From: a virus
UHGV virus genome: UHGV-2156197
DNA: 40,124 nucleotides
Reading direction: 5' to 3' (one strand)
The notes under the pieces are model-generated. The model was not told the DNA's origin. It made no database searches and was given only the letters and a program-made list of their open reading frames with translations. The position numbers were made by a program, and so were the translations under genes. This document shows, in pieces, positions 3,083 to 37,272 of the stretch; positions within the stretch are counted from its first letter, which is position 1, and each line of letters starts with the position of its first letter.

Positions 3083-6000
3083 TGGGAGCCACTCCTGTTA
3101 GTTTACCAATCTGCACAAGCACACGACCTTCCGGCCCCGTAAAGGAAAGATTGTTGTCGGCTTTAGAAAGACACCACCCCCCCTGATTTGCAACTTTGTA
3201 ACCTTCTGACCAGATAGAACCTGAGATTTTCGCATTGTTGATTGCGGCGTTAGCAATTTTGGCGCTTGTTATACTTCCATTCTGAATAAACGCATCGCTG
3301 ATAAACACCTGACCATTAACAACAGCAAAGGGTGAATATTGCGTATCACCGCTGCCACTCATCAGGACGAACTGGTTTGCGTTAAACCCGACACGAGTGA
3401 CCACTGGCTTACCCGCTTCGGCCAGCACCGCGATCGACATCCCGGCGTTATACATCACACCGTTTATTCGAACTCCGGTTTTAAGGGTGTAAATTGCAGA
3501 TGCCCCGGTCGCATCAACCACGGCGGTGAGCTTATCTTCCAGCGCAGCAGTCACATCATTGAACTGCGCCTGCACCTGCGTCGACATTTCAGCCATGGCC
3601 TTATCGACCTGCGCAATGGTCGTTTTAACCACCAGAATATCCGCGCGTACCTCGCCGTACTGCGCCCACTGGTGTTCCACGGTTGCATGGTTGGCCAGCG
3701 CGTTCTGCAATGCGGCTTCAAGATTGGTATCAATGTCGCCGGTCAGGCGGTCACCGTCGGCAGATGTCAGGAAGTCATCAGCAATATCGCCCAGGTAGTC
3801 GTCAGCATTCGCATTAGATTCACCACGAACCCAGTCGGTCCACCCTGATTCATTACCCGTTCTGTCTACCAGCTGCGCGCGGTACCAGAACTCCTGACCA
3901 GCCTTCAAACCCAGTTGGGTGTATTCGGCAGACGGATAAGGCACATCCGACAACAAAAGGGGATTTGAGAAATCACTGTTCGCGGTGTACTGAATTTCCG
4001 TTTTCAGCGTGTCCCCGGTATTAGCCGGGAATCCCCAGTTCAGGCGAATCCCCCAGTTGATCGGCGTTGTCGCAAAGCCGACAGGTTTCGGCGGATTTCC
4101 CACCTTGCCCGTCAGCGTTTTCTCTTCGGAGTAGCCCCAGCCAGAGGAAATTTCAGAGGCATTAATAGCGCGCACACGCACGAGGTAGCGCCCGGCATAA
4201 ATACCCGATACATCAAATGACGTGGTGGAGCTGCGCGGCACGTTAACCCAGTTCCCGTCGTTGCGGCGCCATTGCGCTTCATAGGCGATAGCGTTCTGCG
4301 CCTGGTCCCAGCTCACGCGCATCGTTTCGACGCTAATATTCTGCTGCACCACTGAAAAGGAGCTGATCACGATGTTCGCAGGCGGCGACTGGTTACCCGG
4401 CGGGATCACACTCACCGGCCGCTGGTCAATGATGGCTCCGGTATCAATACGGGCATATTTATCCGGATCGTGCCATGCGCCAGTAATCGAGAAGGTACCA
4501 TCATTGTTATCGGAGACACTGACAACACGATACTGCTGGGCGTAGAGTTCATCTGACTCAACCACCCATACAGCTTCGGCCTGTGGTGTCTCACTGTATG
4601 CCGTGGTGACTGTGACTGATTCCCCGTTAACCGCCTGAATAGTCCTGCTCTGTGACGCACCGGAGGGAAGATTGAGAATAAGGCGATCGCCTGCTGCTGC
4701 ATCAGCTACGCGGTCAAGTTTAATCACGCGACCGTTAACAGCACTGATGCGGCCGCCCATAACTTTGCCGGACAGAAGCTCGTCTGACACGGCGATGATG
4801 TATCCCGGCTGCGGAATGTTTCCGTCCAGGCCAACATCAAACGAAACAACGCGATCCTTGTTGTTGGTGAGAATACCCCAGCGCCCCTTTCGGTTCGCTT
4901 CTGATTGCCTGGTACAGCCGATGGCTGTCATTTCCAGCTGATTAAATCCGTACCGGGCCACCAGAGGCTGCTCAAACACCGGCTCCATCGCATCTGCATA
5001 GGCGTTACCCGGATCAGACCAGGAAACCAGCGCCGTGGTATACCGCGTTTTTGTCGTGCTGCTGGAATAGGTAAAGCGTCCGTCGATAACGTTAGCGCGG
5101 GTGTAAGCGTAATCCACATCTCTCGGCATATCGGCAAGCGCAACAATCTGATCACCGCCCCAGTAGGTCATGCCACGGAAGATAGCAGCAAAATCACGCA
5201 GGACTGTGTAAGCGTCGTTTCGGTCCTGAATGTACACGTTGCAGGTATAACGTGGTTCGGTACCGTTGCCCCCTTTGCCGTCTAGCACCATCTGATCACA
5301 ATACTGGGCAACCTGATAAAGCGTCCATTTATCGATGTTAGCGGCAGTCAAACGGTGACCGAGGCCGAACCGGTCAGAAACAACCAGATCGTAAAAAATC
5401 CACGCAGGGTTATCCGTCCATGCCCACTTAAACGCACCGGTCCATGTACCGCTATAAATACGGGTTTCAGGGTCGTAGGTATCTGGAACGCGGATAACAC
5501 GACCGCGGGGCTCGCAGGAGATCTGCGGGATAGAACCGTTAAACTGGCTGGAATCGAATTCGATGTAGAGTAACGCTGTGTTTGGATAGCGTAACTTGGC
5601 GTCAATCACCTCAGTGAAGCTCTGCAGCGTCATCGTGTCGCCGATCTTCGCGCTGTTGGCGTCAGAGGTTATCTTACGCAGGCGGATTGTCCAGGTGCTT
5701 CCAACCTGCGGTAAATCAATACGGTGGCTGCGCTCGTAACCAGACGTTGTTTTTCCGGTCACGCTGGTATTGAGTACCGTCTGCCATGCGCCGCCGCCCG
5801 TCTGCAGGTCAATCGCATAATTGACCGAGTAACCGACCAGATCACCGTCGTCCTCCTGTTTGAAAAGCGATGGCCATTTCAGACGCAGGCGAACTGCCGA
5901 AAGCTGCGTATTGGTAAACGTTCGCGTCCAGGCTGTGGCGCTTGATACCTCAGTTCCCACGCTGATTTCGTTTTCGGTACCGGGAATACCCTGAATATAC

Positions 6001-6251
6001 TTTTGCGCCTGCGTTCCCGCGCGAAACTCCCACGTCACGCCGCTGAAGTTTTGGGAGCCATCGGCGTTCTCCAGCGCCGTTCCGTCCAGGTAGATATCTT
6101 TGCCGGTTAATTGTCCTGCAAATTCACCTTCGCCAAGCGCAACGAGGATTTTGGCTTTCGCTACAGATTGCAGATCATCAGGCTGTTCGGTAGGGGTTCT
6201 GGAACTGGAGCTGCCGCCCTTGCGGCCCTTTAACACTTTTTCTTTAGCCAT
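3075..6251 (-). CDS. J: host specificity / central tail fibre protein J
   Basis: 1058 aa; long-range similarity to lambda gpJ as recalled (e.g. YPNTAL, NPAW-FYD, YCDQ-V-DG-GG-EPR-TCN blocks). Confidence 0.9.
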   Translation of the reverse strand: MAKEKVLKGRKGGSSSSRTPTEQPDDLQSVAKAKILVALGEGEFAGQLTGKDIYLDGTALENADGSQNFSGVTWEFRAGTQAQKYIQGIPGTENEISVGTEVSSATAWTRTFTNTQLSAVRLRLKWPSLFKQEDDGDLVGYSVNYAIDLQTGGGAWQTVLNTSVTGKTTSGYERSHRIDLPQVGSTWTIRLRKITSDANSAKIGDTMTLQSFTEVIDAKLRYPNTALLYIEFDSSQFNGSIPQISCEPRGRVIRVPDTYDPETRIYSGTWTGAFKWAWTDNPAWIFYDLVVSDRFGLGHRLTAANIDKWTLYQVAQYCDQMVLDGKGGNGTEPRYTCNVYIQDRNDAYTVLRDFAAIFRGMTYWGGDQIVALADMPRDVDYAYTRANVIDGRFTYSSSTTKTRYTTALVSWSDPGNAYADAMEPVFEQPLVARYGFNQLEMTAIGCTRQSEANRKGRWGILTNNKDRVVSFDVGLDGNIPQPGYIIAVSDELLSGKVMGGRISAVNGRVIKLDRVADAAAGDRLILNLPSGASQSRTIQAVNGESVTVTTAYSETPQAEAVWVVESDELYAQQYRVVSVSDNNDGTFSITGAWHDPDKYARIDTGAIIDQRPVSVIPPGNQSPPANIVISSFSVVQQNISVETMRVSWDQAQNAIAYEAQWRRNDGNWVNVPRSSTTSFDVSGIYAGRYLVRVRAINASEISSGWGYSEEKTLTGKVGNPPKPVGFATTPINWGIRLNWGFPANTGDTLKTEIQYTANSDFSNPLLLSDVPYPSAEYTQLGLKAGQEFWYRAQLVDRTGNESGWTDWVRGESNANADDYLGDIADDFLTSADGDRLTGDIDTNLEAALQNALANHATVEHQWAQYGEVRADILVVKTTIAQVDKAMAEMSTQVQAQFNDVTAALEDKLTAVVDATGASAIYTLKTGVRINGVMYNAGMSIAVLAEAGKPVVTRVGFNANQFVLMSGSGDTQYSPFAVVNGQVFISDAFIQNGSITSAKIANAAINNAKISGSIWSEGYKVANQGGWCLSKADNNLSFTGPEGRVLVQIGKLTGVAPNV

Positions 6252-28558: not shown

Positions 28559-30489
28559 GCCACCTCCTGCTGTTGCACTGCACACAGTTCCGGAAGATTT
28601 GCCTCAACCAGCGCCCGGGCGAATGGTGGTGGTACCGCATTACCGCAGCGGGCTACCTGCTTATCTTTTGCATAGCGATTTCCACGGTAGTCCTGATCAA
28701 TAACGTAACCATCCGGGAAGCCCTGCGCTTTGTAGAGTTCATGCGGCTGCAACATGCGCATTCCGATATCAACGATCTGGTATTTAACCCCATCGATCGT
28801 TACCAGCCATTCATCGTCACTTTCCCCGCAATACGTCTCGAGAAATGTGCGTACCTCACCCACGTGTTGGCCACCAGCAGTGATTGTTGGCATTGGCACA
28901 TCAAGGCGTTGCCCGTCGCGGCATGTTCCACGCAGTTTCACCAGATGAGAGGCAACTACCGCATGATGGTCGACAGTGGTCACTGAATGCGCGGGTTCAT
29001 CCATACTGACACCCGGCCCCGTATAGTTACCGCCGTAGTGTTTCGCCAGGAATGCGCTCACCGTCGCAAATTTATTTCCGCCTGCAGTAACGGTCCCCAG
29101 CGGGTTATCCAGTCGCAGCACACGCGGTTCTTGTCCAGGTCGTTCGCCATAACCCATCTGAATCAGCGTAGGCGTTACCAGTTGAGATTTACCGCCACCA
29201 CCAGCGGTGATGGTTGCGCTCGGTTCGTCTGCACGGTGGCCGACGCTGGCCCCAAACTGGCGGGCTATCACTGGCGCAACAAGACAGGCTCGGGATTGCT
29301 TCAGAATGGTATGAGCAGGTTTATTCAGCGGGCGCGGTTTAGCCTGGTATTCACTACCACCATTACCCGCCAGGAATGGTGTCAATGCAGCCTCAACAAT
29401 CCCGAGAGCATGCCCGTTCCCGCCCGGGCGTTTTGACGTGCCAGCGGTTACCGTCGGAACAGGTTCGGTAACGGGCTGCCCGGTTGCGCCAGTGCGGAAT
29501 TTTGTAAGGTGTGGAACGGCTAACGCGTAGCCGAGTTTTTTAGTAATGGTCTGTAATGGCTCATTCAGTGACTGTCCGCGAAAAGCGTCATACGCATTTT
29601 TTGAGCTCGTGTGGTTGCACTTCACGATAAACGGCGACGCACTTTCGATAACAAAGCGCTGTATGCCGCGTGCGATCCGCTTCAGAGTGTTCTCTGCCAG
29701 CGGTTTTTTGCGGTCGAAGATGGACAGAGCCGGAACATTCCAGTCGATACATTCCGCAGCGGTACGCCATGGCATCAGCCTGCCGCTCTGCACCTCCAGT
29801 GACTTGGGATCCCCATGGGTTACAACAGGCCACTGAATAGGGCAACCATCGCAGCGCATAACCATGAAGAAGCGTTTGCGGATCGTCGGCGCGCCGTAAT
29901 CACACGCGCGCAGTTCGCGATAATCAACATCATATCCAAGCCCTTCCACCAGCTGTTTGGCCTGCGTGCTGCCAGGATCAATAGCAAGAAATTCGCAGAC
30001 CTCCGCCAGTGCCGGGTGATCGGCAGGAATGCCAGTGGAAAGCATGCCGACAAAAGCATTGAATGTTTCGCCAGTGCGGGCAGGGTCTGGACGCATTTCA
30101 TCGGCCAGCAGCGGTCCCCACGTTTTAAACTCTTCCACGTTCTCCAGCATCATCACGCGCGGTCGCTTCGCCAGTGCCCAACGCAGAACGATCCAGGCCA
30201 GACCGCGTATCTCTTTTTTCACAGGCTTTGCGCCTTTGGCCTTTGAGAAGTGTCGGCAGTCCGGGCTAAACCATGCCAGGCCAACAGGATTGCCGCCGGT
30301 GGCGGCTACCGGATCCACGTCAAATACGGATTCACAGTAATGCAGTGTGTCAGGGTGGTTCGTCTTGTGCATCGCAATGGCGTTTTCGTCGTGGTTGATC
30401 GCAATATCCACGCTGCGTCCGATCGCCAGTTCAATACCCGTTGATGCACCACCGCCACCAGCAAAGTTATCAACGATAATCTCACGCAT
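28555..30489 (-). CDS. DNA (cytosine-5)-methyltransferase, unusually long, with repeated target-recognition-like segments
   Basis: 644 aa; motif I FAGGGG, motif IV SPDCRHFS, motif VI ENV, motif X GNAV; four TxTAGG repeats in the variable region. Confidence 0.85.
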   Translation of the reverse strand: MREIIVDNFAGGGGASTGIELAIGRSVDIAINHDENAIAMHKTNHPDTLHYCESVFDVDPVAATGGNPVGLAWFSPDCRHFSKAKGAKPVKKEIRGLAWIVLRWALAKRPRVMMLENVEEFKTWGPLLADEMRPDPARTGETFNAFVGMLSTGIPADHPALAEVCEFLAIDPGSTQAKQLVEGLGYDVDYRELRACDYGAPTIRKRFFMVMRCDGCPIQWPVVTHGDPKSLEVQSGRLMPWRTAAECIDWNVPALSIFDRKKPLAENTLKRIARGIQRFVIESASPFIVKCNHTSSKNAYDAFRGQSLNEPLQTITKKLGYALAVPHLTKFRTGATGQPVTEPVPTVTAGTSKRPGGNGHALGIVEAALTPFLAGNGGSEYQAKPRPLNKPAHTILKQSRACLVAPVIARQFGASVGHRADEPSATITAGGGGKSQLVTPTLIQMGYGERPGQEPRVLRLDNPLGTVTAGGNKFATVSAFLAKHYGGNYTGPGVSMDEPAHSVTTVDHHAVVASHLVKLRGTCRDGQRLDVPMPTITAGGQHVGEVRTFLETYCGESDDEWLVTIDGVKYQIVDIGMRMLQPHELYKAQGFPDGYVIDQDYRGNRYAKDKQVARCGNAVPPPFARALVEANLPELCAVQQQEVA

Positions 30490-31363
30490 GGGTTACCCCC
30501 TGCATGCTGCCAACAAGACCACGCGCAATTGTGATAATTTCGCTGGTGGCCGTTCGTTCCAGCCAGAGTTGATTGATGTTGGCTTTCAGTTTGTTCTGCT
30601 GGGCCTCGCTCAATACATCAACGCCTTCCACCTGGTTAAACACCAGACCAACCTCGAGAGGCCAAATTCGTGACTCAGTTTCCGGTGTTGCTGCTGGTTC
30701 CTTAGCTGCCTGCATTGCAATTGTTTGCTCTTTACCAACGGCGAATTGAGCCAAAGCCATAAACGCCCGCCCTTTTTCTTCCAGTTCGGTACGGCTGATG
30801 TAGCTGAAACGCTCTCCGCGCCATGACTTATCAAAGATTGCAATAGCACCAGCAAAGAAAGCACCAGTGGGCTTCTGCTTATCATCAGCAGGAACAAACC
30901 ACACAGGGAGATCGAAGCCAATACGACCGCGGATAAACATGATGTGATCGGCATCTTCCGGCCACCATGTTTCACTTGTCGCCGCTTTAATGAGGAACAC
31001 GTAACGCCCACTCTTTTCACGCATTTCCATTGTGCGATCCATGATGTGGGTCATGCCGGTTATCGCCTGTTTCTCGTGGTACTGCGAACGGCTATATGGT
31101 GGATTACCGAATGCGGCCCCGCCGATTGATTCCAGCATTTCCGCCCAATCTTGTACCAGCGCGTTATCTTCGGCGGTGTACCACACAGGGCACTTAGCGT
31201 TATCGTCATCAGCAAAGAGATCCAGCGTCAGCGGGCCGAACATCGCATTAATGCCCCAAAAAAGCAGGTCCGGTGTCCGCCACTGATCGCCAACTTCTTT
31301 CAATTCGTGGGCTGGTTGGCTACGTAGTGCCACCAGCGCCTGGCAATATTTGTTTAACGTCAT
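30482..31363 (-). CDS. phage-type DNA N6-adenine methyltransferase (Dam family)
   Basis: 293 aa; WRTPDLLF and GNPPY motifs; about 100-aa C-terminal extension. Confidence 0.75.
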   Translation of the reverse strand: MTLNKYCQALVALRSQPAHELKEVGDQWRTPDLLFWGINAMFGPLTLDLFADDDNAKCPVWYTAEDNALVQDWAEMLESIGGAAFGNPPYSRSQYHEKQAITGMTHIMDRTMEMREKSGRYVFLIKAATSETWWPEDADHIMFIRGRIGFDLPVWFVPADDKQKPTGAFFAGAIAIFDKSWRGERFSYISRTELEEKGRAFMALAQFAVGKEQTIAMQAAKEPAATPETESRIWPLEVGLVFNQVEGVDVLSEAQQNKLKANINQLWLERTATSEIITIARGLVGSMQGVTHA

Positions 31364-32217
31364 CCTCTGAACCCCTCTGGAATCGTTGTTTCAACCGGAC
31401 CAAAAGCCATCACATCGCGCTTTTTCGCTCCCCAGTCAGCACGTTTAGGCCGTCCCTTCTGCTCCCAGCGGGTAGCGCTTTGCAGATAGCTCTCGAATTT
31501 CTTCGGGCCAAACAGCGTTTCCGGTCGCATGTACTGGTACTGCTCGTCGTTCTCGTGCCAGTGCTCATGCTTCAGGTCGATAACAAGTTGCAGGTCTGCA
31601 ACGCTGTATCCCTCACGCAGTCGGGCACGGATGTTCTCCAGGGATGTTTTTGATTTCTGATACCGGGATCCGCTGATTTGGTTCAAATGGGTCAGAACCA
31701 AAATTGCCTGATCAGTAATCACGACTTCAGGGTCTGGTTGCGCCGCAACCGGACAAGAGGGTTTTGAAGTTACTTGTGGATCTTGTTTTGATTTTACTGA
31801 CGGATCCCCGCCAGATTCTGACGGGTCAAAACCGCCGTTTTTGCCAGATTTCGACGGGTCAGTTTTTGAGGCGTCAAAATTTGATGCGTCAGATTTTGAC
31901 GTGTCAGAATCTGACAGTTGAGAAAATGCGGCAGCCTGAAGTTTCGCCACATTCAGGCGGTACACGTTCGACGCATTACGGTTACCATTACGGCGCTGTG
32001 TACGCGTGAGCCAGCCATCTTTTTCAAGCTTTGCGATTGCCGTTCTGATCGTGCTCGGCCCTGCGCCAAGCTGGCGAGCAATAGTTTCAATGGACGGCCA
32101 GCACACTCCCTCATCGCTGCTGAAATCAGCGAGGCGAGCCATGATCGCGACACTAGACAACTTCATGCCCGACGCCGCGCAACCATCCCATACGTAGCCG
32201 GTTAATTTAGTGCTCAT
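31360..32217 (-). CDS. replication initiator / replisome organizer (O-like)
   Basis: 285 aa; N-terminal HTH, low-complexity SD/SK linker, C-terminal conserved phage replication domain (LVLTHLNQISGSRYQ...); iterons inside the gene. Confidence 0.7.
   Translation of the reverse strand: MSTKLTGYVWDGCAASGMKLSSVAIMARLADFSSDEGVCWPSIETIARQLGAGPSTIRTAIAKLEKDGWLTRTQRRNGNRNASNVYRLNVAKLQAAAFSQLSDSDTSKSDASNFDASKTDPSKSGKNGGFDPSESGGDPSVKSKQDPQVTSKPSCPVAAQPDPEVVITDQAILVLTHLNQISGSRYQKSKTSLENIRARLREGYSVADLQLVIDLKHEHWHENDEQYQYMRPETLFGPKKFESYLQSATRWEQKGRPKRADWGAKKRDVMAFGPVETTIPEGFRG
31798..31921. repeat. origin-like iteron array inside the replication initiator gene
   Basis: Seven copies of TGAYGNGTCA-like 10-mer (31798, 31819, 31852, 31867, 31882, 31897, 31912); last five at exact 15-bp phasing; AT-rich tract just downstream. 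Confidence 0.6.
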
Positions 32218-32226
32218 GATCGTCCG

Positions 32227-32553
32227 TTATCTCCCTGAACTTTTGCCTGAAATGCTCAAGTGGGCTGAAGCATTCGTGCGGGTAGCCATCACGCAGGTAG
32301 ATAACGCGTTGTGTTTCTGGTTCCCAGCGGATAACACGGACAGACACTCCGCGGTGGTCTTTGAACCTTCGGTTAAGTTCGCGCACAGGCGTTTTGCCCT
32401 CCGGTTATAGACCCCCACAATTGAAACCGCCCTACTGTGGTTACACGGAACCCAGCGGTTTGATAATCTGCGTTCATACCGAAACAACGGAGTACCCGAA
32501 ACCGGGATCATCCTGAGTTGCGGTAGACGGTTAAAAGCCGTTAAACTGCTCAT
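32227..32553 (-). CDS. hypothetical protein (weak call)
   Basis: 108 codons from ATG 32553 with GGAG 11 nt upstream, co-oriented in the pR operon; composition not very protein-like. Confidence 0.25.
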   Translation of the reverse strand: MSSLTAFNRLPQLRMIPVSGTPLFRYERRLSNRWVPCNHSRAVSIVGVYNRRAKRLCANLTEGSKTTAECLSVLSAGNQKHNALSTCVMATRTNASAHLSISGKSSGR

Positions 32554-32558
32554 GCGGA

Positions 32559-33110
32559 TTATTTCTCCATACTCGAAGAGTTGTTCGCCAAGGCGCCCGG
32601 AGCTGCACACTCGCGGGCGTCACTCTTTTCAGCGACACAAAAAACTCGATAAAGAAGCGTTACGTGCTCCTGGAACTTCGCGATAACCTGATAGCTGTTT
32701 TCCTCAATCTGAGCACGCTCATCTGCGTCAATTACCCCATCAGCCGTGGCTTTACGTACAAAATTAGAATGACGACCTATCCATTCAATGGACTCCATCA
32801 GGCGCTGGTTTATATCGGCGTTATCCAGATCATCAACGTCTGCCAGCGGTACAAATACGCCCTGAGAATGGCGCGCAACGGCATCAGCAATATGAGTTGA
32901 ACCACCAGCACGTTGTAAAACCATTGCCCAGCCCAGCGGGAAGATTTGGTCGCCGTCAACACGAAGGCGGTTGAACAATGCGTTCTCTGTCACGCCCAAC
33001 CATTCCGCCGCCTCGGCATAACCACCAGGAAGATCGGTGATCGTTTTTTTTATCGCCGCCACCAGCCAGGCTGGCTGACGTTCGACTTTCCAAATAGGTT
33101 CGTTACCCAC
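32559..33110 (-). CDS. CII-like regulatory protein
   Basis: 183 aa, HTH-like segment; first gene after cro-like; GTG start with GGGGGGAG SD; family assignment uncertain. Confidence 0.45.
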   Translation of the reverse strand: MGNEPIWKVERQPAWLVAAIKKTITDLPGGYAEAAEWLGVTENALFNRLRVDGDQIFPLGWAMVLQRAGGSTHIADAVARHSQGVFVPLADVDDLDNADINQRLMESIEWIGRHSNFVRKATADGVIDADERAQIEENSYQVIAKFQEHVTLLYRVFCVAEKSDARECAAPGALANNSSSMEK

Positions 33111-33120
33111 AGCTCCCCCC

Positions 33121-33348
33121 TTATTCCTGTGGTTTGAGTTTTACTGAAGCATCGCTACGCTTTTCGTAAAGGTCGGGATGAAAAACCAATTTCCCCCCGG
33201 TTCGATATGCTGCTTCAGCTGCACGCCCTTTTGGGATAAGGCGACCAGTTCTATTACGCCACTGGTAAACAGCCTCGCTTGTGATTCCAAAAAATTCGGC
33301 AACCTTCTCAGTACTGCCGAAGTAGTTTTCAATATCATCGGTTGTCAT
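33121..33348 (-). CDS. Cro-like HTH repressor (YdaS-like)
   Basis: 75 aa; HTH FGSTEKVAEFFGITSEAVYQW; divergent from cI-like gene; AAGGAGG SD. Confidence 0.7.
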   Translation of the reverse strand: MTTDDIENYFGSTEKVAEFFGITSEAVYQWRNRTGRLIPKGRAAEAAYRTGGKLVFHPDLYEKRSDASVKLKPQE

Positions 33349-33356
33349 AACGCCTC

Positions 33357-33424
33357 CTTAGCTAAGTTTGATTAGATATTAATAACCAATCTAACTTTGG
33401 TCAATAAAAACTAAGATTGCTTAG
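33357..33424. promoter_or_regulatory. right operator region with three CTAAG-type operator sites
   Basis: CTAAG-TTTG-ATTAG (33362-33375), CTAAC-TTTG-GTCAA (33391-33404), perfect CTAAG-ATTG-CTTAG (33411-33424); plus palindrome CTTAGCTAAG 33357-33366. Confidence 0.5.
33376..33404 (-). promoter_or_regulatory. pR-like promoter for the cro-like operon
   Basis: Minus-strand -35 TTGACC (33404-33399), 17-bp spacer, -10 TAATAT (33381-33376); overlapped by operator sites. Confidence 0.5.
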
Positions 33425-33444
33425 CCTTTTAATTTATTTATGGT
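33416..33444 (+). promoter_or_regulatory. pRM-like promoter giving a leaderless cI-like mRNA
   Basis: -10 TATGGT (33439-33444) ends 6 nt before ATG 33451 and no SD is present; weak -35 ATTGCT inside the perfect operator. Confidence 0.4.
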
Positions 33445-33450
33445 GTTCAA

Positions 33451-34077
33451 ATGGAAACTGTCGGTCAGCGCATCAAAGCTCTCAGGCGCATAACCAAAAC
33501 CTCGCAGAAAGAACTGGGTAAGTTCTGCGGTGTTAGTGATGTGGCGGTTGGGTATTGGGAAAAAGACGTTAATGTGCCTGGAGGCGAGTCACTTGCGAAA
33601 CTTGCAAAGTATTTCAACACATCAATTGATTACATACTTTATGGCACTGAATTTGAAGGCAATCTGATAACCAAGATGCGAAGGATTCCGGTGATATCCT
33701 GGGTTCAGGCTGGACAGTTTACAGAATGTAAAGCAGCAGAAGTTTTCAGCGAAGTAGATAAGTGGATAGAGACATCACTCCGCATAGGGGATAGCTCCTT
33801 TGCATTGGAGGTTAAAGGTGATTCGATGACAAACCCTAATGGCCTCCCGACAATCCCTGAAGGGGCAACAGTCATAGTAGATCCAGATGCAGAGCCACTT
33901 CATGGAAAGATAGTCGTAGCCAGGCTTGATGGGACAAACGAGGCTACTGTAAAAAAACTTGTCATCGATGGGCCTCAAAAGTTCTTAGTTCCCTTAAATC
34001 CACGCTATCCAAACATTTCAATTAACGGTAATTGCCTGATCATCGGCGTTGTCAAAGGCGTTCAGTACGAGCTTTAA
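33451..34077 (+). CDS. CI-like repressor (XRE HTH plus S24 LexA-like autopeptidase domain)
   Basis: 208 aa; N-terminal HTH; C-terminal GDSM...KK catalytic Ser/Lys dyad of S24 peptidases. Confidence 0.85.
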   Translation: METVGQRIKALRRITKTSQKELGKFCGVSDVAVGYWEKDVNVPGGESLAKLAKYFNTSIDYILYGTEFEGNLITKMRRIPVISWVQAGQFTECKAAEVFSEVDKWIETSLRIGDSSFALEVKGDSMTNPNGLPTIPEGATVIVDPDAEPLHGKIVVARLDGTNEATVKKLVIDGPQKFLVPLNPRYPNISINGNCLIIGVVKGVQYEL

Positions 34078-34107
34078 CCCACCTCTAACCTTCCTCTTAA
34101 CATCAAG

Positions 34108-34160
34108 CTAAGAATAGTTTGGTGTTTTTTCTTGATCTAAAAGCTAAGTTAAGTTAGATT
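34108..34160 (+). promoter_or_regulatory. OL/pL-like operator-promoter
   Basis: CTAAG operator-like sites at 34108-34112 and 34144-34157 (CTAAGTTAAGTTAG, 13/16 identical to the 33362 operator); -35 TTGATC (34132-34137), 17-bp spacer, -10 TAGATT (34155-34160). Confidence 0.45.
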
Positions 34161-34165
34161 TTATT

Positions 34166-35349
34166 CATCAACAGCGAACAGGCAGGACGCCCACGAAGTA
34201 GCCGCCGGTGGCATATGAATAACCGGATGATTCGCTGACAGGTGTCTTCGGGAGGGGTAACAGAGGCGCGGCCTGATTAACCGCAACTCGTAGTCAAATT
34301 CCTATAGCTGGTGGCGATACCCAAGCCAGGAATACCAAAACCAGCAGGAGTGTTAAGGGCAAGGGCTAATCACCCCCTTAGCACCCCGCCCGAAGATACC
34401 TACCACCGCGCCTGATGTGGTTAAAAGCAGGCCAAAGCAATAACAAGTAACTCCCTGTTCTGGCGGCCCGGTGTTTTCCCGTTTGTCCGGTAACCGCCAG
34501 CCTTTTTCAGGGAAGATCAGCCGGTCATGGTAAGCATCTCGCAGGATGCTTACCGGGACTGGAAGAGTTACCACTTGGAGACGGTCCTTATAAATGTCCT
34601 GGAGAGTGGCGCTGACGACGGAGCGATAACCGAAGGTTGTATGCCCAACTGGAGGCATTGACTACCTAGAAAGATGGGGAGCATGAAAGGCTAAAGGGGC
34701 GGCTCTTTCATGGTGATCCCGCCCAGTTGGTGAAAAGTCGTGATGCGTCTTCATTCCAACCATGCTGGCTGTAAGGTCAGCACACAACGATGAGAGCATT
34801 GACGAGCAAGGCATAACGGCAGGTTCAATCCCTGCCACCGCTATACAGATAGCGGTGATGGGCAACGAAAAGGTCCGTTCAATTCGGATACCGGCAGTGC
34901 TCTCTTCGTTGTGGTGAATGGCGGGGCTGACCGTCAAACGGTTGAGAAAAGATAAGCAGGCGAAACGTTCTAAGCGAGCATACGGACTGATCGAACGCGG
35001 ATGGAACGGGCGGTTACGATATTGAAACACCGCGCCACTGAGCTGGAGTTCAGCACCAGCAACCACAACCAAATCACGCTGAGGACTGTGATAACCGTAG
35101 TTCCATGTGTGTAGTCTTGGCGGTACCTGGGCCTTCAACCTTATGCAAGGGGGACGAAGATAATGTTCTACCTCGGTACCGCCCTTTTTACGCAACAGAA
35201 AAGAGCATCACCGGGCGACGGGCTCATAACCCAATCCACCCGGGCAAAAAGAAAGCGGTCCCTGCAAGCCGCCGACCAATGCAGGTGCTCTTCTCTGTTG
35301 TGTATGGAGAAAGTTCGGCGGTTGCAGCCGCCTTAACGAGGGTAAAACC
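34166..35349 (+). other. ORF-free, hairpin-rich leader of the early-left operon (candidate structured RNA / antitermination region)
   Basis: No plus-strand ORF of 60 aa or more in the track; stops frequent in all frames; perfect 10-bp hairpin 34529-34554, interleaved stems 34682-34724, twin hairpins 34818-34857, terminator-like stem plus T-run 35120-35189. Confidence 0.3.
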
Positions 35350-35721
35350 ATGAGTAATGACCGCATGACCGTAGTGCCAGATTTTCTTGGCGAACTGGAT
35401 GCCGGCGTGTTCATGAACAAAATCGCGGCAGCACTTAATACCACCGCGCTTGGCGTTCTGAACAACGGCAACAAAGGCAAAGTAGTCCTCACATTTGATT
35501 TTGAGCGCATGGGTAATTCCGTTGAAGAGAAGCGCGTCAAGATCAAGCACAAGCTGAACTACAGCACCCCAACACCGCGTGGTAAAGCCTCCGAAGAGGA
35601 CACAACCGAAACCCCGATGTGGGTCAACAAAGGCGGGAAGCTCACCATCCTGCAGGAAGATCAGGGTCAGTTGTTCGGGATCACTGGCGCGGTGGATGGA
35701 AAGCTTAAAGCGGCTCAGTGA
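35350..35721 (+). CDS. hypothetical early protein
   Basis: 123 aa; ATG with GAGGG SD; first clear gene of the leftward early operon. Confidence 0.55.
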   Translation: MSNDRMTVVPDFLGELDAGVFMNKIAAALNTTALGVLNNGNKGKVVLTFDFERMGNSVEEKRVKIKHKLNYSTPTPRGKASEEDTTETPMWVNKGGKLTILQEDQGQLFGITGAVDGKLKAAQ

Positions 35722-35777
35722 TCCGCAACAACAAACTCACTGATACCACTTCGATCATCAGTTAATAAGGAATTTCT

Positions 35778-36548
35778 ATGTCTCAGTTAGACAGCGGTAC
35801 ATTTCAGCAGGTAAAAGACCTGGTCCTTTCTGGCTACCACCTGAATGATATTCATGGCCTGGCTTGCCCGACCGCATTGCTGCCAGATGGTACTAGCGTT
35901 GAAAGCCTTGAGCGCTTTTCTCTGGAGCGTTTCCGCTTCCGTGGTGCAATGACAACAACCAGTATTGACGATTTCGCACGTTATTCTAAAGGTTACGCCA
36001 GCGACAGTGAGCCAGCACGTTGCTTCATTGACGCTGACAACATGACCGCCCGTTCAGTGTTCAACATCGGCAACCTGGATAATCCCGGTCACGCCGATAA
36101 CGTTGCTTCGATCACCCTGAAGAAAACCGCGCCCTTCCGCGCGTTACTGCAGATCGATGGTCAACGTCTGAAGCAAAAGCAAATCGCCGAATGGCTGGAA
36201 GACTGGAGCGATTACCTGCTGGCGTTTGATGCTGATGGCAATACGATGCAGATTTCCCAGGCAGCTCAGGCTGTGCGTCGTATCACTATTCAGCAAGCAA
36301 CCCAGCAGGACCATGAAACTGGTGATTTCGCTGGTAAAAAATCGCTGATGCAAAGCGTTGAAGCAAGCAGCAAAGACGTAATGCCTGTGGCGTTTGAATT
36401 CAAATGTGTGCCGTATGAAGGTCTGGGCGAACGACGTTTTAGCTTGCGTAACAGCCTGCTGACCAGCGATGAACCCGCTTTGTTCTGCGCATCGTCCAAC
36501 TTGAAGCCCAGGAAGAAGAGATCGCCAATGAATTCCGCGATCTGCTGA
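35778..36548 (+). CDS. DUF2303 / YfdQ-like protein, C-terminus apparently frame-disrupted
   Basis: 256 aa in the track frame; a more protein-like C-terminus ([33 protein letters not shown]) continues in another frame to a stop at 36602-36604. Confidence 0.7.
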
Positions 36549-36643: not shown

Positions 36644-36732
36644 GAAGCGTAATTCCATTAATTATCGCCACCCGGCGAGGGATTCGTGCAACCAAAATCT
36701 GCGCGGTGCAGCGCGCCAATATGGAGAAAACG

Positions 36733-37272
36733 ATGAGCTACATTCAAACATTATCCGGTAAAAAATTTAACTACCTGACCGCCACAATCGACGATATCGA
36801 TGTTGAAGATATCGCGACAGCTCTTTCCAACATCTGTCGATTCGCCGGGCATCTACCAGAGTTTTACAGTGTGGCTCAGCACTCTGTGCTTGTTAGCCAG
36901 ATTGTTCCGCCAGAGTTCGCCTTTGAAGCGTTGATGCACGACGCTGCGGAGGCATATTGCCAGGACATTCCGGCACCACTCAAAGCATTGCTGCCTGACT
37001 ACCAGCGCATGGAAACTTATGTTGATGGTCTTATCCGCTTTAAATTCGGTATCTCTCTTGAACAAGCTGCTGTCGTGAAATATGCCGATCTCACCATGTT
37101 AGCTACCGAGCGCCGTGATCTGGAAATCGATGACGGTTCGAAGTGGGAAATTCTCGAAGGTATTCCCTGCTCTGATCTCGTTCAGGTTATCCCTCTCCGT
37201 CCTGGTCAAGCCTATGGCCTGTTCATGAATCGCTTTAACGAACTGATGGAGCTGCGCCAATGCGCCACATGA
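36733..37272 (+). CDS. yfdR: HD-domain 5'-deoxynucleotidase, YfdR-like
   Basis: Close match to recalled E. coli YfdR (ICRFAGHL..FYSVAQH..FEALMHDA.EAYCQDIPAPLK); start trimmed to ATG 36733 with GGAG SD (track start GTG 36706). Confidence 0.8.
   Translation: MSYIQTLSGKKFNYLTATIDDIDVEDIATALSNICRFAGHLPEFYSVAQHSVLVSQIVPPEFAFEALMHDAAEAYCQDIPAPLKALLPDYQRMETYVDGLIRFKFGISLEQAAVVKYADLTMLATERRDLEIDDGSKWEILEGIPCSDLVQVIPLRPGQAYGLFMNRFNELMELRQCAT

Follow-up and report, generated by a model that had tools for sequence, protein, structure and literature searches.

The 40,124-nt stretch of the UHGV virus genome UHGV-2156197 analysed here (hereafter the window) carries a lambdoid immunity region in which, according to the open reading frame (ORF) list, PHROG and related phages, the early genes to the right of the repressor lie on the plus strand. 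Between the predicted early-left promoter (pL) and the first of these genes, a member of the yfdP family, lies a segment at 34166–35349 that is non-coding, is under selection for RNA pairing on the plus strand and consists of a chain of separately exchangeable folded RNA modules, designated A, B, C, D1, D2, D3, D4 and E (Table 1), which were resolved by local alignment to fetched relative loci (L numbers). pL is not listed by a consensus promoter scan of the window because its hexamers match at 8 of 12 positions only. Considering that it is bracketed by repeats resembling the operator of the early-right and repressor-maintenance promoters (pR/pRM), and that a TTGAC hexamer is aligned just 5' of module A in relatives, including those with unrelated operators, the promoter call of the initial annotation was accepted, with a predicted start near 34167–34168; the segment would thereby form the leader of the early-left operon. 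The closest loci for D4–E and C–E are Citrobacter genomes (L117, L127, L128), and the phage host is probably Citrobacter or a close relative.

Table 1. Features of the immunity region and of the leader segment (positions in the window; last column, number of related loci with the module)
Feature	Position	Strand	Description	Related loci
YmfL-like gene	32559–33110	-		
cro-like gene	33121–33348	-		
CI/LexA-like repressor gene	33451–34077	+	from the ORF list	
Terminator-like hairpin and T-run	34099–34131	+	just 3' of the repressor gene; 12-pair stem 34099–34126, then TTTTTCTTGAT	
Operator-like repeats	34105–34129, 34141–34165	+	similar to the pR/pRM operator at 33360–33389	
Predicted pL	34132–34137 (-35), 34155–34160 (-10)	+	TTGATC and TAGATT, 17-nt spacing	
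Module A	34168–34241	+	74-nt conserved 5' leader; outer stem around two hairpins; near-invariant GAACAGGCAGGACGCCCACGAAGUAGCCGCC	48 of 102
Module B	34233–34408	+	long-stem module; 26-nt arms 34233–34258 / 34383–34408 around ~124 nt of hairpins	8
Module C	34460–34507	+	intrinsic terminator as read from the sequence: CTGGCGG...CCGCCAG, then CCTTTTT	10–17
Module D1	34513–34782	+	hairpin 34521–34562, conserved core, H-type pseudoknot, small hairpin 34764–34781	4–13
Module D2	34783–34913	+	131-nt tRNA-like cassette; 19-bp P1 around hairpins H1, H2 and H3	not applicable (used to collect the set)
D2 hairpin H1		+	T-arm hairpin GGCAGG-TTCAATC-CCTGCC	
D2 hairpin H3		+	T-arm hairpin GTCCG-TTCAATT-CGGAT	
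Module D3	34914–35105	+	conserved non-coding spacer; hairpin GGCGG-GGCTGA-CCGTC at 34920–34935	2–5
Module D4	35106–35189	+	small-RNA-like; single-stranded 13-mer TGTGTGTAGTCTT at 35106–35118, then terminator GGCGGTACC/GGTACCGCC and CTTTTT	24–43
Module E	35190–35303	+	cassette; P1 ACGCAACAGAAAAGAGCATC 35190–35209 / GGTGCTCTTCTCTGTTGTGT 35284–35303; variable third element after P2	~75
E arm P2	35211–35243	+	GGG-CTCATAA-CCC at 35220–35232	
Hairpin	35317–35332	+	GGCGG-TTGCAG-CCGCC; pairs 156–167 and 157–164 of the E alignment covary	
Shine-Dalgarno sequence	35338–35342	+	GAGGG, 5' of the yfdP-family ATG at 35350	
yfdP-family gene	35350–35721	+	phrog_204 match; YfdP name from relatives	
yfdQ-family gene	35778–36548	+		
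yfdR-family gene	36706–37272	+		

The segment has a GC content of 0.52–0.55 throughout and, as the initial annotation had remarked, no AT-rich intergenic character. The same annotation held that no plus-strand ORF reaches 60 aa, which is incorrect, as the ORF list contains one of 82 aa (35105–35353) in addition to several of 34–57 aa; on the minus strand there are ORFs of 101 and 177 aa. Neither Pfam nor PHROG gives a credible match for any ORF of the segment. Very short ORFs that overlap D2 and E (34762–34917 and 35163–35336) match phrog_36558 and phrog_33599, function-unassigned families that were probably built from ORFs mis-called on conserved RNA. Module D3 contains ORFs of 35 and 37 aa, neither of which is conserved. 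The former (34918–35025), the only Arg/Lys-rich ORF of the segment, was considered as an N-like protein and rejected because of how its substitutions are distributed and because a relative has stops in the frame: compared with L007 it shows 12 differences, mostly at codon positions 1 and 2, as well as loss of the stop codon, and L013 has stops in frame. ORFs of the E region are disrupted among relatives by indels in the variable arm whose lengths are not multiples of 3. When the relatives are aligned, conservation follows base pairs and not codons.

Folding energies were compared with those of dinucleotide shuffles, a test in which five coding controls gave z values of +1.02 to -1.56. Four of five segments fold better than their shuffles (z = -2.78 for A–C, -2.89 for D1, -5.99 for D2 and -3.13 for E), and there is a G>C skew over 34500–34950. 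The local structures seen at first reading were all recovered and could be assigned to modules. The perfect 10-bp hairpin (GGTAAGCATC, 34529–34538, with GATGCTTACC, 34545–34554) extends to 18-nt arms (34521–34538 and 34545–34562) in D1; the two interleaved stems (34682–34689/34705–34712 and 34697–34702/34719–34724) form the H-type pseudoknot of the same module, with three compensatory changes relative to L003 and L090; the twin adjacent hairpins (34818–34858) are H1 and H2 of D2; and the long-range stem with T-run (arms 35119–35127 and 35175–35183) is the intrinsic terminator of D4. Covariation supports A, B, D1, D2 and E. The initial proposal of a large structured leader RNA is therefore retained in that five sub-segments covary and the G·U asymmetry described below points to the plus strand, and is modified in that the segment is a mosaic with two terminators and not one large fold.

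This mosaic is apparent from the distribution of the modules, which are horizontally shuffled, each occurring alone in other phages, with swap junctions directly after terminator U-runs. No single database record covers more than 44% of the segment, and the covered parts vary by record. In two E. coli loci (L001, L002) and two Citrobacter loci (L127, L128), position 34512 is joined straight to 35191, so that 34513–35190 constitutes an insertion relative to those loci, both ends of which fall just past a terminator T-run; in these and other relatives without D, module E lies directly 3' of module C. Unrelated phages also contain pieces of the insertion, adjacent to tRNA genes. Of 5,426 complete E. 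coli genomes, 1,538 match the leader in some part; both D2 and E are present in the E. coli IHE3034 and APEC O78 relatives. A typical enterobacterial D4–E–yfdP stretch is also carried by L130, an assembly labelled 'Chryseobacterium sp. 18061', which probably reflects contamination or a mis-binned contig.

Module D2 folds into a cloverleaf-like structure closed by P1, whose 19 pairs include a 2×2 loop. A nearly invariant 23-mer of D2 was used as query and retrieved 96 viral stretches, from which a consensus structure was derived with 46 distinct sequences. In the consensus, the 7-nt loop of H1 with its closing pairs reads GGTTCRATYCC and H3 reads GTCCG-TTCRATT-CGGAC; these T-loop sequences (GTTCRAWYC) are closed by covarying stems. 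The sequence of H2 is wholly different between lineages, with pairing always kept. Altogether 93.5% of the alignment cells pair, compared with 38–55% when partners are slid; nine pairs (102 cells) are changed on both sides, and the covariation score is 0.215 versus 0.105 in shuffles (0/500). P1 contains 81 G·U cells and 4 mismatches, an excess that points to RNA of the plus strand, because the other strand would have C·A mismatches. The D2 covariance model scores 173 bits in the window, where it finds a single copy and none near pR. Across the related loci D2 lies on the strand of the repressor, 335–2400 nt past its gene and usually 300–600 nt before yfdP or another first gene. In L018 and L022 its 3' end abuts a tRNA-Arg(UCU) gene, within a plus-strand unit between portal and terminase genes. 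Such units are present in epsilon15-like phages (L018 8300–9000; L003 2520–3647), in the order operator-like palindrome, leader hairpins, D2 or a short-interior variant, DicF-like terminator, second terminator and gene; the tRNA-Arg(UCU) lies inside the L018 unit, and the last gene of both units encodes a putative membrane protein of ~140 aa.

D2 and E belong to one cassette family, defined by a shared stem of 17–22 bp, 5' CACAAC..RAGAGCA / UGCUCUY..GUUGUG 3'. The interiors of the cassettes are variable and built of tRNA parts, namely two T-arms in D2 and an initiator anticodon arm in E; no D-arm-like hairpin was found in D2 and no anticodon-like 7-nt loop in its H2. The D2 model also matches loci with the same closing stem and other interiors, one of which (L103) reads as a D-arm-like hairpin and a T-arm, and a pattern scan revealed up to four cassettes per leader and at least eight length or interior types. 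In L036, the stretch 5935–6060, wedged between a long-stem cassette and D2, scores 40 bits on the Rfam tRNA model; acceptor, D and T arms are matched, and 68 nt take the place of the anticodon arm. ARAGORN at default settings misses it. In the window, ARAGORN at default settings reports 0 genes and the Rfam tRNA model has no match; lowering the ARAGORN threshold to 80% yielded inconsistent partial tRNA and permuted transfer-messenger RNA calls, which were treated as noise. Two other identities for the cassette stem were considered and rejected. A boxA hidden in the 3' strand (UGCUCUU.., the first 7–8 nt of which equal the rrn boxA) is at odds with the 5' and 3' strands being about equally invariant, and integron attC-like sites (CAAC...GTTG) misfit in their core motifs, lack an integrase and do not account for the G·U asymmetry, which indicates RNA.

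In module E, 14 nt of the arm P2 (CGGGCUCAUAACCC) are identical to the anticodon stem-loop of E. coli initiator tRNA, the sequence of which was verified against annotated tRNA-Met genes (median four copies per genome). The E consensus, built from 33 distinct sequences, has a closing helix of 22 pairs, 17 of them P1 proper and five a possible extension between the U-run and GGAGAAA. Compensatory changes occur at four pairs of this helix, including a GC/CG swap in 12 sequences, and two further pairs covary in the arm; over the whole alignment 8 pairs show double changes, while the GGG/CCC pairs and CAU are invariant. The position of E is likewise constrained: it ends 46 nt before the yfdP-family start codon, and a T-run lies directly 5' of its stem in ~125 of 135 motif-bearing loci. 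Being located past the last terminator and in front of the first start codon, E would be made on read-through transcripts only. The gene that follows varies (yfdP, rdgC, holin and others). With one genome scanned per species, a 21-nt E motif was found in 18 Enterobacterales species records. It also occurs far outside this order, in an Acidobacteriaceae metagenome-assembled genome (MAG; L112, ~5560–5680 of the oriented locus), where two helices flank it, a perfect one of 8 bp and an outer one of 10 bp, and a Shine-Dalgarno sequence directly after it leads into a 95-aa ORF that has no Pfam match. In L111 (a Pantoea MAG) and L124 (Raoultella), the motif is found between the antitermination-protein-Q and holin genes, past a tR'-like terminator, and the flanking stems have other sequences with pairing retained; the replacement of the whole stem in L111 by another complementary pair implies that pairing, not sequence, is kept. 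Pairing of the CAU loop with the start codon beyond AUG was considered and rejected, being present for yfdP (AUGAG) and not at other first genes.

Module A begins ~7 nt past the predicted -10 hexamer and has a mean identity of 89% across phages with different repressors. Of its alignment cells, 96.8% are paired versus 21–46% when slid, and three pairs, all in the hairpin 38–42/55–59, are changed on both sides. The covariance model of A (R2) scores 102.8 bits with one copy in the window; no second copy was found downstream of pR with this model, and no inverted repeat of A in 30000–36000. In most relatives a small, variable gene with its Shine-Dalgarno sequence comes directly after A. In 12 related loci (L001 3168–3179, L036 4952–4963, L023 7216–7227 and nine others) an exact boxA (GCTCTTTAACAA) lies ~25 nt past module A, always on the operon (plus) strand and with a small hairpin 5' of it, which suggests antitermination that depends on Nus factors and is not RNA-only.

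What lies between A and terminator C varies among the loci. In the window this slot is occupied by module B, whose closing stem shows one GC/AU compensatory pair, with four more covarying pairs inside. Other relatives have a small first gene or a hairpin plus boxA at this place; the slot holds a gene for a ClpX-type zinc-finger protein of 121 aa in L002 (3109–3474) and a minus-strand hypothetical gene in L001 (3341–3841). In the pseudoknot of D1, the changes relative to L003 and L090 are AU to CG in S1 and two G-C to A-U in S2. The epsilon15-like Salmonella phage PAT1 has a sequence 89% identical to D1 in a gap without ORFs among its head genes; on one side of this gap lies the portal ('head to tail connecting') gene, on the other a small plus-strand gene and then that of the terminase large subunit. 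The hairpin of D3 covaries (GGCGA/TCGCC, AGCGA/TCGCT). When up to 2 mismatches are allowed, 101 of 199 loci contain the 13-mer of D4, and the terminator hairpin that follows varies in sequence across loci while its arms stay complementary. Matches of D4 to the DicF model are weak, 16.5 bits at 35106–35184 and 29.1 bits in L036 compared with a gathering score of 48.

No part of the leader is accounted for by Rfam, ARAGORN, Pfam or PHROG. With Rfam 15 at the gathering threshold no match was obtained in the whole window, and none of the modules matches a curated family; a permissive scan of 33900–35600 (E up to 10) gave chance miRNA-type matches and the weak DicF similarity only. In the window and eight related loci together, the only families at threshold are tRNA, C4 and isrK, elsewhere than in the modules. 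The latter two are known families unrelated to the leader: the C4 antisense RNA (L009 111–198, 80.7 bits) and isrK (L009 223–299, 58.9 bits) lie on the minus strand and adjoin the ash/ant genes of an E. coli IHE3034 prophage. To the left of the repressor, the window contains six direct repeats of ~19 nt (GYCAGATTYTGACGKGTCA) at 31810–31964, within an O-like replication gene (31360–32217, minus strand), which are probably origin iterons. No description of the leader elements was found in the literature searched, in which a preprint on the Pas small RNA (sRNA) and a paper on the ST64B transcriptome do not cover the region.

Several known RNAs nevertheless resemble individual modules. In the bacterial Y RNA YrlA, the 5' and 3' ends pair into a long stem, and the interior is tRNA-like with a canonical T-arm (PMC4201824). 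D2 likewise has ~130 nt, a 19-bp stem formed by its ends and an interior with covariation that mimics T-arms; it differs in having two T-arms and no D-arm, in lacking an Rfam 15 match at E up to 10 (the YrlA model presumed included), and in its flanks, which are the CI-like repressor and yfdP/yfdQ/yfdR, with no Ro60/Rsr nearby (TROVE was not looked for elsewhere in the window). Among the hosts of D2 is E. coli, which is not known to carry Rsr. D4 is comparable to DicF, from the dicB operon of prophage Qin, in its single-stranded stretch, GGCGG...CCGCC terminator with U-run and location in a pL-type lambdoid operon, whereas it stays below the gathering score and its 13-mer differs from the 5' region of DicF. 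DicF itself is a processing product of RNase III and RNase E. With ROOL and GOLLD RNAs and phage tRNA arrays, the leader shares an ORF-free, highly structured prophage RNA with tRNA genes adjoining in some relatives; unlike those, it is a mosaic of 70–270-nt modules, occurs in Enterobacterales and has a fixed place in operon leaders. Finally, RNase III hairpins such as those of the lambda N leader and the T7 early sites comprise about two helical turns (≥20 bp), in some cases interrupted by a small internal loop, to be compared with 19 pairs in D2 P1 and 22 in E P1, including the possible five.

Taken together, we propose that the leader is a chain of untranslated RNA modules in the 5' part of the pL operon of a YmfL/YfdP-type lambdoid prophage, parts of which are cassettes released by processing; we assign a probability of roughly 0.55 to this reading. 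After induction, transcription from pL would proceed through A, and A itself (or boxA in relatives) would be the likeliest element letting RNA polymerase past terminators C and D4, with host Nus factors as the alternative. Rho might be kept off this long untranslated transcript by its strong folding and G>C skew. Nucleases specific for double strands or for tRNA processing (RNase III, RNase P) could then cut the cassettes in their long stems and at the tRNA-like junctions next to them, which would release stable small RNAs, namely D2 as a tRNA mimic and a DicF-like sRNA that ends at D4, and leave a downstream mRNA with a short 5' end near hairpin 35317–35332. E may govern processing, ribosome loading at the first cistron, or both, in cis. 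It is further conceivable, albeit unlikely in our estimate, that tRNA-mimic cassettes in the leaders of antiterminated operons of Enterobacterales lambdoid prophages act on the translation or tRNA machinery or decoy tRNA-targeting nucleases: docking at the 30S P site, or an interaction with IF3, might serve to load ribosomes on read-through transcripts, or alternatively the cassettes might be decoys for VapC-type toxins or anticodon nucleases.

A number of observations weigh against the proposed chain of processed cassettes. The transcription start, read-through, processing and product stability are all predictions from sequence, and the indications for the RNase III and RNase P steps are helix length and tRNA adjacency. 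D3–D4 has a folding z of -0.12, that is, D3 shows no excess folding. D-region sequence is matched in 86 of the 5,426 E. coli genomes, as opposed to the 1,538 that match some leader part; D2 is optional and therefore cannot be essential for expression of the pL operon. Complementarity to the start codon does not covary with the loop variants of E. No match to a boxA (GCUCUUUAACAA-like) with at most 2 mismatches was found in 34100–35400, and A is unlike the put RNAs of HK022, to which homology was rejected, there being no blastn or covariance-model similarity; the reading does not explain the passage of polymerase past two terminators.

The last point bears on the suggestion of the initial annotation that the segment is an RNA-based antitermination module, which can apply to A only. 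In its present form, module A, alone or with downstream modules, would be a cis-acting put-like antiterminator that folds on emerging from the polymerase and renders it resistant to C and D4, the rest of the leader being cargo, an explanation that we regard as possible but doubtful. With such a mechanism, terminators would be suppressed independently of other factors, through the beta' zinc-binding domain. The put RNAs of HK022 are cis-acting antiterminator RNAs and provide the precedent (PMC9378689); like them, A has ~70 nt, is folded, starts at the predicted transcript start directly downstream of the early-left promoter, and precedes intrinsic terminators, two of them here, in a phage without an N-like gene, and its conservation across phages with different repressors and its covarying hairpin would fit such a role. 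Conversely, the R2 model has no match in the HK022 locus (L110) and blastn of A against the HK022 immunity region yields chance 9–13-mers only; A is single-copy, with no twin downstream of pR, and consists of an outer stem with two inner hairpins whereas put has two long stems; its activity is putative. In most relatives A is simply the 5' untranslated region of a small first gene, and the canonical boxA after A in 12 loci suggests dependence on Nus factors. Those loci, with their hairpin and exact boxA right after A, are comparable to the nutL sites of lambda and P22, and the leader as a whole resembles the N leader and rrn boxA systems in being an untranslated stretch from pL to the first gene with terminators to override, with long helices that could be RNase III sites as in the lambda N leader; the window differs in having no boxA, boxB or N-like gene and a leader that is ~10 times longer and made of exchangeable cassettes.

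Alternatively, the cassettes could be trans-acting tRNA mimics, the first products to appear upon induction, that serve as decoys or inhibitors of host tRNA-recognising factors and form an RNA-only counter-defence or host-takeover island, which we consider unlikely. Mimicry of the T-arm and of the initiator anticodon arm is conserved, and anticodon nucleases, initiator-cutting VapC-type toxins and tRNA-modifying or tRNA-binding proteins are candidate targets; D2 is optional and exchanged like a moron, recurs in epsilon15-like phages as a separate plus-strand unit next to tRNA-Arg, and as many as four cassettes lie in one array. Anti-defence functions also typically reside at the front of early operons. 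However, no defence system or target was identified, D2 H2 lacks an anticodon-like 7-nt loop, and the strict place of E, after the terminator and before the first gene, fits a role in cis better. The pairing data disfavour the two remaining explanations. That the inverted repeats act as DNA, as recombination boundary sequences or hairpins of single-stranded DNA with incidental RNA folds, appears improbable: module junctions do fall on short sequences shared at terminators, the interiors between CACAAC...GTTGTG arms are unrelated and the stem reads nearly alike on both strands, but the G·U pairs frequent on the plus strand would be C·A on the other, compensatory changes are found in the interiors and in P1, including the full stem swap in L111, and the orientation is always that of the operon. 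We find it very improbable that the segment consists of decayed early genes, as the initial annotation had also considered, or of unannotated small proteins. ORFs are available on both strands, some of the tiny ones have weak PHROG matches, and real small genes occupy slot B in relatives; yet there are no protein-family matches in Pfam and the PHROG matches span DNA-conserved stretches only, the best ORF changes mainly at codon positions 1 and 2 and is interrupted by stops in L013, and the indels in the variable arm of E and the conservation of base pairs do not follow a reading frame.

Although the immunity regions of lambdoid prophages are among the best-studied DNA, in the family described here they contain about a kilobase of conserved, covarying RNA that is blank in annotations or lies under spurious ORFs, and the alignments of A, B, D1, D2 and E could define several candidate RNA families. 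The copy of the initiator anticodon arm, which follows a terminator and immediately precedes the first cistron of early-left operons and, for two relatives, of late operons, may be a new kind of cis-element. Its placement points to a connection, not described so far, of processive antitermination with translation initiation, or else to tRNA mimicry directed at the host. If true, tRNA-mimic cassettes would represent a previously undescribed RNA-only layer of regulation or counter-defence, and the results bear on how the N-less phages of this group pass their early terminators.

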